Origin: a virus
Lineage: Duplodnaviria > Heunggongvirae > Uroviricota > Caudoviricetes
Reading direction: 5' to 3' (one strand)
IMG/VR virus record: IMGVR_UViG_3300029085_000025
Length of the DNA stretch: 5,721 bases
In this document: positions 3,001 to 5,721 of the stretch, piece after piece
Position numbering within the stretch: the first letter of the stretch is position 1
How the letters are laid out: each line of letters starts with the position of its first letter
Position numbers: made by a program

Positions 3001-5721
3001 CATCAATGCCTTTAACCAGATGGAGAAACAGCTTTCAAATCCCTCTGTACTGAGCGACGTTGCACATAACGCCAGCGTTCTCTATTCCTACATTTCATCA
3101 ATTCATCAGGTCTGGCTGCAGCAGCTTTATCCCATGTTGGCAAAAGCCGAATCCCCGCTGGCTGTAAGTCTGTATGACCGCATCAACGACGCGGCGCTAC
3201 TGGCCAGTCTCATAAATTTGTCGCTGAACCCTTCAGAGGTAAGGGGGCGCAAATGATCCGGAATATTTTCAAACGGTTTACCAATCATACTTTCCGTTGT
3301 CCTCGTCCGGGTCAGTGGTACACCACGCCTGCAGGGCATGTTCTACGTGTTAGCCTGGTTGACCGTGAATGTCAGAAGGTGGTTTGTGAACCGCTGGGCC
3401 GTAATTACCGCGTCAGTATGCCGCTTATAGCCTTTTGCTCCGGAAAAATGTTTAAGCGTCTGGGAGGTGTGGCGTGAACTGTTTTCAGTTTGTGTGCGGA
3501 TGTGCTTTCGATAACCCGATTCAGCGCCTGATTATGTTGCGTGTTTTGATGTCGGGTTCTTCAGACGGTGAAGGCGAGAGAGTTATTGATCATCAGGTGC
3601 TTGCTGATTTCTGCTGTTGTTCTAAGCAAGCGATATTCAGGGAAACCCTGGCACTGGAAAGAGCTGGTTATCTTCATATCCGAAAAATTGCAACGCTTAC
3701 TATTGATGCAAAAGCCAGACTACAACCTGCGCGTGGCTACACAATTCTCATGCTGCGGAAGGAGGTTGTATGAGCCGTTACGCCCCCACACCGGAAGTTA
3801 TGGCTATTGGTCAAATTAATATTTCCGGCAATGTTACACCTGCGACCTGGTGGAAATATATTCGACTACCCAGTGGGCGTCCGGATGCGACGGCTATCGC
3901 TCTGCTTTCAGAGATCGTTTACTGGTACCGCCCGACAGAGGTCAGGGATGAGCACACCGGAGCGTTGCTGGGATATCGCAAGCGTTTTCAGGGCGACAAA
4001 CTGCAAAGAAGCTACCAGGCGTTTGCTGAGCAGTTTGGTTTCGGGAAAAGGGAAACCGCAGATGCGCTGAAGCGTCTGCGCGATGCAGGGTTTATTACTC
4101 TGGATTTACGCACGGTGGAAATGCTCGATGGGGTGAAATGCAGCAATATTTTGTTTGTCGGGATCAACCCACAGGCAATTGCGGCCATCACCACACCTTC
4201 TTCTGTTTCGCTAGAAAGTAACAGCAATAATGCAATCAGCGATACAGCTATTACGTTAAAACGGAACACCCCCCGACGTCATAACGGAACAGGGGATACG
4301 CCGAATGTTGATACAAATACAGAGATTACTACAGAGATTACAACGGAGACTAAAAACACTATTGGCGCATCCGCTGACGCGTCTGCACCAGCGCGTTCTG
4401 CCCGACAGGAATATTCACCGGAATTTGAACAGGCCTGGCAGGAATATCCCAAACGTGCTGGTGGTAATTCAAAATCCGCCGCTTTTAAAGCCTGGAAAGC
4501 CCGAATCAGGGAAGGTGTGACACCTGAAACCATGCTCGACGGTGTGAAACGCTATGCCGCCTGGGTGCGTGTCTCTGGAAATACCGGTACCCAGTTCGTG
4601 AAGCAGGCGTCGACGTTCTTTGGTCCGGATCGTCATTTCGAAGAATCCTGGGAAGTTCCTGCGGTATCTGCAGCCAGACGCGAGGACCCGTACTTCAAAG
4701 CCAGTTACGACAACGTGGACTACAGCCAGATCCCGGCAGGATTCAGGGGGTGAGCATGAGTATTTTGAATGACGTTCAGAAATTCATTGAAGCCCATCCG
4801 GGGTGTACTTCAGGTGACATTGCGGATGCTTTTGCTGGTTACTCACGACAGTGCGTTCTGCAGTCAGCAAGCAAGTTACGTCAGAGTGGCCGTGTGGCTC
4901 ACTGTTGTGAAGGGAAAACACGCAGACATTTCCCACACCAGGCTGAGATATCGCAGGAGGAGAAACTGCAACCTGTTCTTGAAACCATACCTGTGAGCAA
5001 TTTCTATGTCGGCACTAACGACCCCTGGGTGATTTTGTGCCTGACCCGTCAGGCTGAAGAACTGGAGTCCAGGGGCTTATACCGTCGTGCTGCAACGGTG
5101 TGGATGGCGGCATTCCGTGAAAGCCACTCCCAGCCAGAACGAAACAATTTTCTGGCGCGTCGTGAGCAGTGTTTACGGAAAAGCAGCAAGCGCGCTGTAT
5201 CGGGTGAAGAGTGGTATCTGTCAGGGAATTACGTGGGGGCTTAATGACGACGTTAACTCAATGCCAGCAGCAGGTGCTGGATATGCTGATTTCTTACCAG
5301 AAAGAACGTGGCTTCCCGCCAACCAATCAGGAGGTGGCTACCATGCTGGGATACCGTTCAGTGAATGCAGCGGTGGAGCATCTTCGCGCACTGGAGAAAA
5401 AAGGCGTCATCACGATAAAGCGTGGCGTGGCCCGGGGCATCACGCTTCATACCGCGGTGAAGGACGACGACAGCGAGGTGGCCGGGATTATCCGCGCACT
5501 GCTTGCTGGTGAGGAAAACGCCAGGCTGCGTGCAGCCCACTGGTTACATGAGAGGGGGCTGAAAGTATGAAGCTGATTCTGCCTTTTCCACCCAGCGTGA
5601 ACACCTACTGGCGACACCCCAACAAAGGGGCATTTGCTGGTAAGAGCCTGATAAGCGCGGCGGGGCGAAAATTCCAGAGTGCGGCGTGCACAGCAATAGT
5701 TGAGCAGTTACGTCGTCTGCC

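Follow-up and report, generated by a model that had tools for sequence, protein, structure and literature searches.

A probable replication origin inside the initiator gene of a lambdoid Escherichia coli prophage

Where does a lambdoid prophage begin its replication when its initiator has no detectable homology to protein O of phage lambda? The question is raised by a stretch of 5,721 nucleotides from a member of the Caudoviricetes (IMG/VR record IMGVR_UViG_3300029085_000025; "the window" hereafter denotes this whole stretch), which, judging from its gene content, covers the region in which a lambdoid E. coli prophage encodes immunity and replication. A first-pass annotation, made from the sequence alone, had proposed that repeats within the presumed initiator gene are the iterons of the origin. 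The analysis reported here supports a reading to which we assign a probability of roughly 0.8, namely that positions 4253-4362 are the prophage's replication origin, situated in the linker-coding part of its own initiator gene (3770-4753, plus strand).

The initiator gene and its repeats

The 327-residue product of the open reading frame (ORF) 3770-4753 matched the PHROGs family phrog_270 ("replication initiation protein") with E = 3e-77, and searches of the same protein against Pfam and NCBIfam, including the organizer family Phage_rep_org_N, gave no match. Its identity therefore rests on PHROGs, on gene context, and on a structure model. The gene occupies the usual place of lambdoid phage replication genes (the order being cI, cro, cII, Rha, initiator, PerC, LexA-like, RusA), and genes for a DnaC-like ATPase and a DnaB-like helicase come directly after it in E. 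coli relatives of 92-96% identity. Taken together, the assignment of 3770-4753 as a phage replication initiator is well supported, and with it the earlier statement that the repeats lie inside such a gene. An initiator gene 100% identical to that of the window is present in a prophage of E. coli AR_0017, where its product carries the RefSeq label "hypothetical protein."

The AlphaFold2 model (41 homologues) comprised an N-terminal domain at residues 1-141 (predicted local distance difference test, pLDDT, about 90-97, and 87-97 over residues 11-140), a disordered segment at residues 149-199 (pLDDT <50), and a helical C-terminal domain with helices spanning residues 217-293. The N-domain, encoded at 3770-4195 (plus strand; residues 1-142), is the presumed iteron-binding module. 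A profile search of PDB sequences gave weak GntR-type helix-turn-helix (HTH) matches at residues 84-110 (E 0.03 or worse), and the only neighbors that Foldseek returned from PDB for this domain were winged-helix proteins and the N-domain of DnaD, none of them significant (for the DnaD N-domain, 2v79, the template modeling score was about 0.5 at E = 0.14). The C-domain, encoded at 4406-4753 (plus strand; residues 213-327), is presumed to recruit a helicase or its loader. The C-terminal third of the protein matched phrog_1701 ("DnaD-like helicase loader"; 2e-37) and phrog_9327 ("primosomal protein"), and Pfam DnaB_2 had no match anywhere in the 327 residues. The C-domain is shared with the "replication protein O" of mEp460 and Stx phages, whose N-domain differs; homologues of the N-domain, in turn, occur in many phyla, joined to several different C-domains.

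Within the initiator gene, the 9-mer AACGGAACA is found at 4260-4268 and 4283-4291, exactly twice in the window and as the first-pass annotation had described it. The copies are 23 nucleotides apart and consequently read in different frames, encoding ..KRNT.. and ..HNGT.., respectively. A repeat search extended the similarity in the 5′ direction to 16 nucleotides with 14/16 identity, which defines iteron 1 as ACGTTAAAACGGAACA (4253-4268, plus strand) and iteron 2 as ACGTCATAACGGAACA (4276-4291, plus strand). Homologues of iteron 1 are the ACGTTGAAACG(T/G) copies found in Serratia, Yersinia, Xenorhabdus, and others, and iteron 2 has positional equivalents in ACGTTCAGACG (Serratia/Yersinia), ACGTCAAGACG (Xenorhabdus), and ACGGCGAAACGGAACA (L187). 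The conserved iteron core is ACGT(T/C)nnAACG; in this E. coli lineage, AACGGAACA makes up its right half. By direct reading of the sequence, a degenerate iteron 3, ACGCCGAATGTTGATA (4298-4313, plus strand), was recognized 22 bp after iteron 2. It aligns (ACGCCGAATGT at 4298) with ACGCCGAAAAG of Rosenbergiella and ACGTTGAAA(A/C)G of Yersinia/Serratia, but as it fits the core at 6/11 positions only, it is assigned by position and phase. Thus, the two copies originally noticed stand, whereas their extent had to be revised: the core starts further 5′ than had been thought, and the third copy had been missed. In the closer relatives among viral contigs, the same three iteron positions are occupied, or one more copy is present upstream. 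A 12-mer-like sequence (TACAGCTATTAC, 10/12 positions, 4243-4254), which also occurs in L136, adjoins iteron 1 on its 5′ side, so that in this lineage, the iteron array has 12-mer-like sequence on both flanks.

Downstream of the iterons, Tandem Repeats Finder reported 2.7 copies of a 12-mer with the consensus TACAGAGATTAC at 4318-4349 (90% matches), which encode TEITTEITTE. The whole array reads AA TACAGAGATTAC TACAGAGATTAC AACGGAGACTAA (4316-4353, plus strand) and is presumably the unwinding or loading element. That tandem 12-bp units encode a TEITTEITT-type linker had been recognized before; however, they do not merely encode it but are the most strongly DNA-constrained part of the region, as the related loci make apparent (see below). 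Altogether, the repeats from 4253 to 4353 encode residues 162-195 and hence fall into the predicted disordered segment (residues 149-199) between the two folded domains, which agrees with their original placement in a linker.

An A-rich stretch following the 12-mers had also been named in the first-pass annotation. Taken literally, it amounts merely to the run TAAAAAC (4351-4357), but the whole segment 4309-4362 (plus strand), which includes the 12-mers, does qualify: it has 31.5% GC, 48% A, and 63% purine on the coding strand, and belongs to the ∼1% lowest-GC 50-nucleotide windows of the 5.7 kb. The AT skew at 4250-4349 is +0.39. Just past this segment, the inverted-repeat listing contained a near-palindrome, GCTGACGCGTCTGC (4373-4386, without strand), whose membership in the origin is uncertain. 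At the equivalent place, Serratia and Rosenbergiella have GCTGACGC, and the lambda origin (ori), too, has a palindrome beyond its A-rich tract. The 8-mer ACACTATT (4356-4363), directly after the repeats, is also found at the start of the lambda A-rich tract. Both likenesses to lambda could be due to chance.

Neither the iteron nor the 12-mer has a second copy elsewhere in the window. In the repeat region, no Rfam match was obtained and no RNA structure was detected (fold z = -0.45), no promoter or terminator was found within or beside the array, and inspection of the 12-mers, by eye only, revealed no resemblance to DnaA boxes. Another direct repeat of the window, GCCCGACAGGAATAT / GCCTGGCAGGAATAT (13/15 identical; 4400-4414 and 4433-4447), was considered and excluded from the element because it stays in frame, the copies being 33 nucleotides apart and encoding RQEY and WQEY where the C-domain begins, and because PhiR40_1, which has the C-domain of the window, has not retained the second copy; it is probably a chance or protein-level feature.

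Judged from the window alone, the repeats are suggestive only. Allowing ≤1 mismatch, AACGGAACA matched three times in the window when 1.6 matches were expected, which is not unusual. A 14/16 direct repeat at a distance of 16-60 arose in 0.08% of simulated segments of 153 nucleotides, the size of the linker, and the short-range direct-repeat families of the whole window, three in number, all fall within 4253-4447. It is the comparison with related loci that makes the repeats unambiguous.

Conservation of the layout in related loci

The comparison set consisted of N-domain homologues, one genome per species, amounting to 80 loci. It spans Enterobacterales, Acinetobacter, Rickettsiales, many Firmicutes, Chloroflexota, cyanobacteria, and others; E. 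coli relatives as close as 92-100% identity are too alike to inform on constraint. Across the 80 loci, short-range 12-mer repeats accumulated at +380 to +750 nucleotides of the gene (9.0/kb, versus 0.71/kb elsewhere). The distances between repeats peaked at 22-23, 44-45, 66-67, and 87-89 bp, and a separate peak appeared at 12 bp. The iteron cores of the relatives are dyad-symmetric and lineage-specific (e.g., ACGTTgaAACGT and CCTCCCACATTctAATGTGGGAGG; further examples are ACGTTCAAACGT in Acinetobacter, TACGTTCGGACGTA in Peribacillus, TACAAAATTTTGTA in Lachnospiraceae, CATGTAATCAATTACATG in Syntrophomonas, and TGGCGCTACAGCGCCA in a Chloroflexota genome), and they are often flanked by CCCTCC/GGAGG. 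Such cores would be expected where binding sites and a dimeric DNA-binding domain evolve together. Directly 3′ of the iterons, tandem copies of TACAGAGA(T/A)TAC occur in nearly every locus. Across these loci, the layout is kept family-wide.

Closer to the window, the linkers of Serratia, Yersinia, Rosenbergiella, Arsenophonus, Xenorhabdus, and Providencia contain 3-4 copies of a ACGTTGAAACG-like core at 22-23 bp spacing, and iterons 1 and 2 of the window align with the first two positions of these arrays. In Xenorhabdus, the four copies (GTTACGTTGAAACG, GTTACGTTGAAATG, GTTACGTCAAGACG, and CCTACGTTGAAACG; consensus (G/C)TTACGT(T/C)(G/A)A(A/G)A(C/T)G) follow one another at exactly 22 bp and are distributed over three reading frames. 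Between the enterobacterial genera, synonymous-codon identity was 0.41 (942/2346) in the N-domain versus 0.80 (538/683) in the linker, a difference that was also evident when synonymous identity was compared per column (Mann-Whitney, p = 2e-13). Selection on the DNA is implied when a disordered linker exceeds a folded domain in silent-site conservation and contains repeats in different frames; the silent-site comparison thus shows the repeats to be constrained at this level.

In two cases, the array itself had changed. Yersinia pekkanenii (L007, 2921-3070) lacks exactly one 45-bp unit of two iterons that is present in Y. vastinensis, and P0008 is frameshifted inside the array, so that its 12-mers read as IQRLLQRL. 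On the sequences compared, the 45-bp loss and the frameshift show the repeat array to be susceptible to recombination and slippage.

The 12-mer is constrained even more strongly. With ≤2 mismatches, it was present in the linker of 70/80 loci, exclusively on the coding strand, and at a density of 4.55/kb versus 0.06/kb elsewhere (76-fold). When T[EK][ITN]T motifs were picked by peptide, irrespective of their codons, Thr was encoded by ACA in 97% of cases, versus 40% in the N-domains of the same genes, Glu by GAG in 89% (versus 37%), and Lys by AAG in 26/26. This codon choice is near fixed despite a locus GC that ranges from 0.29 to 0.63, and 139 of 153 copies share the same codon phase. An exact tandem 24-mer scan of IMG/VR yielded at least 120 viral contigs (L085-L204). 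Among the matches listed, the array was located at residues 140-210 of an ORF of 270-390 residues in all 120 and in the same codon phase in 120/120; repeats with a 21-24 bp period occurred in the 150 nucleotides upstream in 114/118 contigs, as opposed to 5/205 control segments. The N-domain of the window is carried by 26 of these 120 contigs, and 93 carry a second N-domain family.

This second, larger family is exemplified by Staphylococcus phage 42E (L206, 1480-1590), Pantoea phage AH07, and Pseudomonas phage AF, and it often has a Phg_2220_C C-terminus; comparing the profile of the window's family with the 42E protein by hhalign gave a weak match only (E = 0.028). Initiators of the second family that combine the TACAGAGAWTAC tandem with iterons of 23-bp period were observed in Staphylococcus, Pantoea, Pseudomonas, Klebsiella, and Bacillus phages. 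Yet another arrangement was seen in Escherichia phage PhiR40_1 (L004, 1660-1815; a "replication protein O" of the mEp460/Stx2-phage type), in which a third N-domain type is joined to the C-domain of the window. Its five dyad repeats are its own (GGTGCAGGAGATTCAC-like, ∼22 bp spacing) and are followed by a different 12-bp tandem (GAACCAGTCAAA GAACCAGTCAAT GAACCAATAGCT). As PhiR40_1 has the same layout and the same C-domain but a different 12-mer, the type of 12-mer does not track the C-domain. Two types of 12-mer, TACAGAGAWTAC and GAACCAGTCAAW, are distinguished.

A 12-mer that stays near-invariant alongside diverging iterons, and does so in two initiator families, may owe this to recognition of its sequence, perhaps while single-stranded; the recognizing partner could be a conserved host factor or a conserved surface of the initiator. 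The TACAGAGAWTAC array might then be more than an AT-rich spacer, namely a sequence-specific element of the origin that has not been described before and that serves, for instance, in single-strand recognition or helicase loading. Such an element would be near-invariant across bacterial phyla and in at least two initiator families (with different N-domains and several C-domains) and would always lie directly 3′ of lineage-specific 22-23 bp iterons. This proposal is a tentative one, and we lean somewhat against it.

Known origins, mechanism, and rival explanations

In lambdoid phages, ori lies in the middle of gene O and consists of iterons and an AT-rich tract (PMC7466680). In the lambda record, four iterons with spacings of 20, 24, and 23 bp are entered mid-O (39034, 39054, 39078, and 39101); beyond them come first an A-rich tract, on the coding strand, and then a palindrome. 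The element in the window agrees with this annotated ori in order, spacing, strand, and position in the gene: it occupies the central part of the initiator gene, within the linker that separates a DNA-binding N-domain from a C-domain; its repeats, of weak dyad symmetry, are likewise ∼22 bp apart (23 and 22 bp); the A-rich segment 4309-4362 is on the same side of the iterons and on the same strand as in lambda, with a palindromic element beyond; and the neighborhood is downstream of cII in both. The lambda-like layout of iterons followed by AT-rich DNA, which the first-pass annotation had invoked, was thus borne out.

The correspondence ends at the sequence. The iterons differ from those of lambda, which has four good ones as opposed to two and a degenerate one in the window; the window has a sequence-conserved 12-mer tandem where lambda has a generic AT-rich tract without any 12-mer; and the P-like loader gene of lambda has no counterpart after the initiator within the window. 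The equation of the initiator with lambda O had to be abandoned, as no Pfam Phage_rep_O match was obtained and hhalign of the family profile versus O returned a probability of 0.2%; "O-like" matches were confined to weak ones in PHROGs (phrog_391, 1.4e-7; phrog_678, 8.8e-5). In the absence of detectable homology to O, the likeness to lambda is therefore architectural and not by descent.

Origins embedded in initiator genes are known from other phages as well. SPP1 gp38 binds direct repeats of oriL inside gene 38, beside an AT-rich unwinding element (PMC6316719), and TP901-1 ORF13 and Tuc2009 Rep2009 bind repeats in their own genes, which constitute the ori (PMC8965321). In all three, the repeats are inside the gene of the organizer itself, as those of the window are inside 3770-4753, and in r1t ORF11, short repeats precede an AT-rich tandem array. 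However, the 11-bp GGAACC repeats and 15-bp tandems of r1t and the 15-bp repeats of TP901-1 are unlike those of the window in sequence and period, the TACAGAGATTAC 12-mer is absent from the three phages in which it was sought (TP901-1, r1t, and lambda), and tblastn of the N-domain against 50,697 phage records retrieved no lactococcal phage and no SPP1. The initiators of the Staphylococcus phage 42E, Pantoea phage AH07, and Pseudomonas phage AF types, annotated as "DnaD-like helicase loader" or "replication initiation O-like," have the same gene position and the same succession of 22-23 bp repeats and TACAGAGAWTAC-type 12-mers in the same codon phase as the window, but belong to another N-domain family and have another C-domain (Phg_2220_C); no published characterization of their origins was found in the literature. 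Iteron plasmid origins of the RepA, pi, and RepE class also consist of ∼22 bp direct repeats that bind a winged-helix initiator, next to an AT-rich unwinding element. Plasmid iterons sit outside the rep gene, though, and their initiators have a WH1-WH2 architecture, to which neither Pfam nor Foldseek detected a relationship of the window initiator. A literature search found no description of the origin of this initiator family, and a full-text search for the 12-mer produced unrelated primers only. The element is best described as a new, so far uncharacterized case among the known origins that lie within initiator genes, apparently of the lambda type but without O-family sequence.

From these comparisons, we infer initiator binding, unwinding, helicase recruitment, and origin activity, which could proceed as follows. 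Dimers of the winged-helix-type N-domain would bind the iterons, that is, the good copies at 4253 and 4276 and the degenerate one at 4298. The spacing of 22-23 bp, about two helical turns, would set the bound proteins on one face of the DNA, so that an O-some-like complex could form, which would strain and open the adjacent A-rich TACAGAGATTAC array (4316-4353). The C-domain would then recruit a helicase or its loader; because no phage gene for either follows the initiator in the window, host DnaB/DnaC or the primosome is proposed for this role. In lambda, two iterons together with the neighboring AT-rich region are enough for unwinding and for replication in vitro, and O binds AT-rich single-stranded DNA (PMC7466680).

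Several points speak against 4253-4362 being the origin. No experimental work on the element or on any member of this initiator family was found, and homology to lambda O is undetectable. The window has only two good iterons and one degenerate copy, compared with 3-8 in relatives, and the dyad symmetry of its copies is weak (4/5 for ACGTT..AACGG and 3/5 for ACGTC..AACGG). The low-GC segment is modest, with 68% A+T over 54 bp. A 14/16 direct repeat at a distance of 16-60, rare as it is in linker-sized segments, arose in 5% of Markov-simulated 5.7-kb sequences. Many of the IMG/VR contigs are close relatives of one another, so the counts obtained from them do not represent independent events. Finally, the prophage could be defective.

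How far these points can be turned into a different explanation varies. The repeats could be initiator-binding sites that serve autoregulation, copy-number control, or handcuffing, with the true origin elsewhere in the prophage. Conservation at the DNA level and lineage-specific dyad cores indicate binding sites and not initiation as such, plasmid iterons are established to have both roles, and the window covers only 5.7 kb of the prophage, so that another site is possible. A pure operator, however, would have no need for the conserved A-rich tandem, on one strand, that the arrays almost always precede and that fits the layout of lambda and SPP1; moreover, the array has no promoter-like site in or beside it, and the window holds no second copy of either motif. 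We consider this explanation unlikely. If the prophage is defective, the two good iterons could also be what is left of a decayed origin that no longer fires. The 6/11 fit of the third copy, the lack in the window of the upstream copy present in relatives such as L187 and L136, and the decay observed elsewhere in the family (the 45-bp loss in Y. pekkanenii and the frameshift in P0008) are compatible with such a remnant. On the other hand, the arrangement of three positions is kept near base-for-base, both in genomes of E. coli and in several independent viral contigs with N-domain differences of 1-5 residues, the initiator gene is intact, and two iterons beside an AT-rich tract suffice in lambda (PMC7466680), which makes a remnant quite improbable.

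The element might, alternatively, be nothing but the by-product of a low-complexity protein linker (peptide repeats of the TPPTLKR.. and TEIT kind) under protein-level selection, or of chance. The peptide motifs TLKRNT and TEITTE are conserved in homologues, most 12-mers hold one codon phase (the 139/153 copies and 120/120 listed contigs mentioned above), and the repeat statistic based on the window only is marginal. Yet the iteron period of 22-23 bp is not a multiple of 3, and the copies accordingly occupy two or three frames per gene, as is evident in the window and in Xenorhabdus; the synonymous sites of the linker are twice as conserved as those of the folded domain; and the codons of the T[EK][ITN]T motifs, GAG and ACA among them, are near fixed against the genes' own usage. 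The linker is, in addition, predicted to be disordered, and the fold score of the RNA is inconspicuous. That the repeats mirror the peptide, or arose by chance, is thus very improbable, and the original contention that the repeats are no by-product of protein repeats has gained considerably in weight.

Gene neighborhood and meaning of the proposed origin

The genes around the initiator are in keeping with the immunity and replication region of a lambdoid prophage. A cI-like S24 repressor is encoded at 511-1203 on the minus strand (ORF and family match) and is followed by a cro-like HTH protein (1301-1561) and a CII/YmfL-like protein (1554-2111). After the latter come an Ash/Rha segment, two small ORFs, and the 327-residue ORF of the initiator; downstream of 3770-4753 are a PerC-like activator, a LexA-like protein, and the start of RusA. 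In AR_0017 (L001, 13475-14128) and most related phages, a gene for an N-6-adenine methyltransferase lies between the PerC-like and LexA-like genes. The window does not have it at the 5244/5245 junction, where the PerC-like and LexA-like ORFs overlap.

Upstream of the Ash and Rha domains, Rfam matched isrK (2468-2544, plus strand, 58.9 bits) and C4 antisense RNA (2569-2656, plus strand, 80.7 bits). This region looks like a P1/P7-type c4-ant (antirepressor) immunity module within a lambdoid prophage. Both matches fall within a mechanically called ORF of 382 residues (2108-3256), which is probably not a single gene, as RefSeq annotates a shorter Rha gene in AR_0017. The ORF immediately preceding the initiator (99 residues; 3474-3773, plus strand) shares 4 nucleotides with the start of the latter and is kept beside it in relatives. 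It matched phrog_4617 ("replication initiation protein," 4e-29) over the N-terminal 90 positions of that family and, weakly, an O-like family; according to these matches, it may be a second small winged-helix protein or the remnant of another initiator.

Related phages also differ at the 3′ end of the initiator gene, where the last ∼25-40 residues (4650-4753 in the window; 2380-2493 in L002 and L003) are exchanged. PerC-like and LexA-like genes come after the tail version that the window, AR_0017, and PhiR40_1 have in common, and DnaC-like and DnaB-like genes after that of NR3736 and VL40. As relatives with loader and helicase genes thus differ from the window in these residues, the exchange suggests that the tail might select which helicase machinery or partner is recruited.

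For the prophage itself, the probable origin is narrowed to ∼110 bp, and the minimal replicon would be the 3770-4753 gene containing its own ori. Its location is the one expected for a lambdoid phage; the cross-phylum layout, and above all the 12-mer, was not found reported in the literature searched. The linker-coding sequence, being under strong synonymous constraint, is not to be treated as freely evolving coding sequence. An initiator family without a Pfam or NCBIfam model nevertheless carries the same putative origin signature from Enterobacterales to Firmicutes, Chloroflexota, and cyanobacteria, and this signature (22-23 bp iterons followed by TACAGAGAWTAC tandems) could serve to annotate phage and prophage origins and initiators. 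The lineage-specific dyad cores, each paired with its N-domain, provide a natural data set on protein-DNA recognition. If TACAGAGAWTAC does turn out to be a sequence-specific element, it would define a very widespread class of phage origins and provide a sequence signature for those of thousands of uncultured phages.

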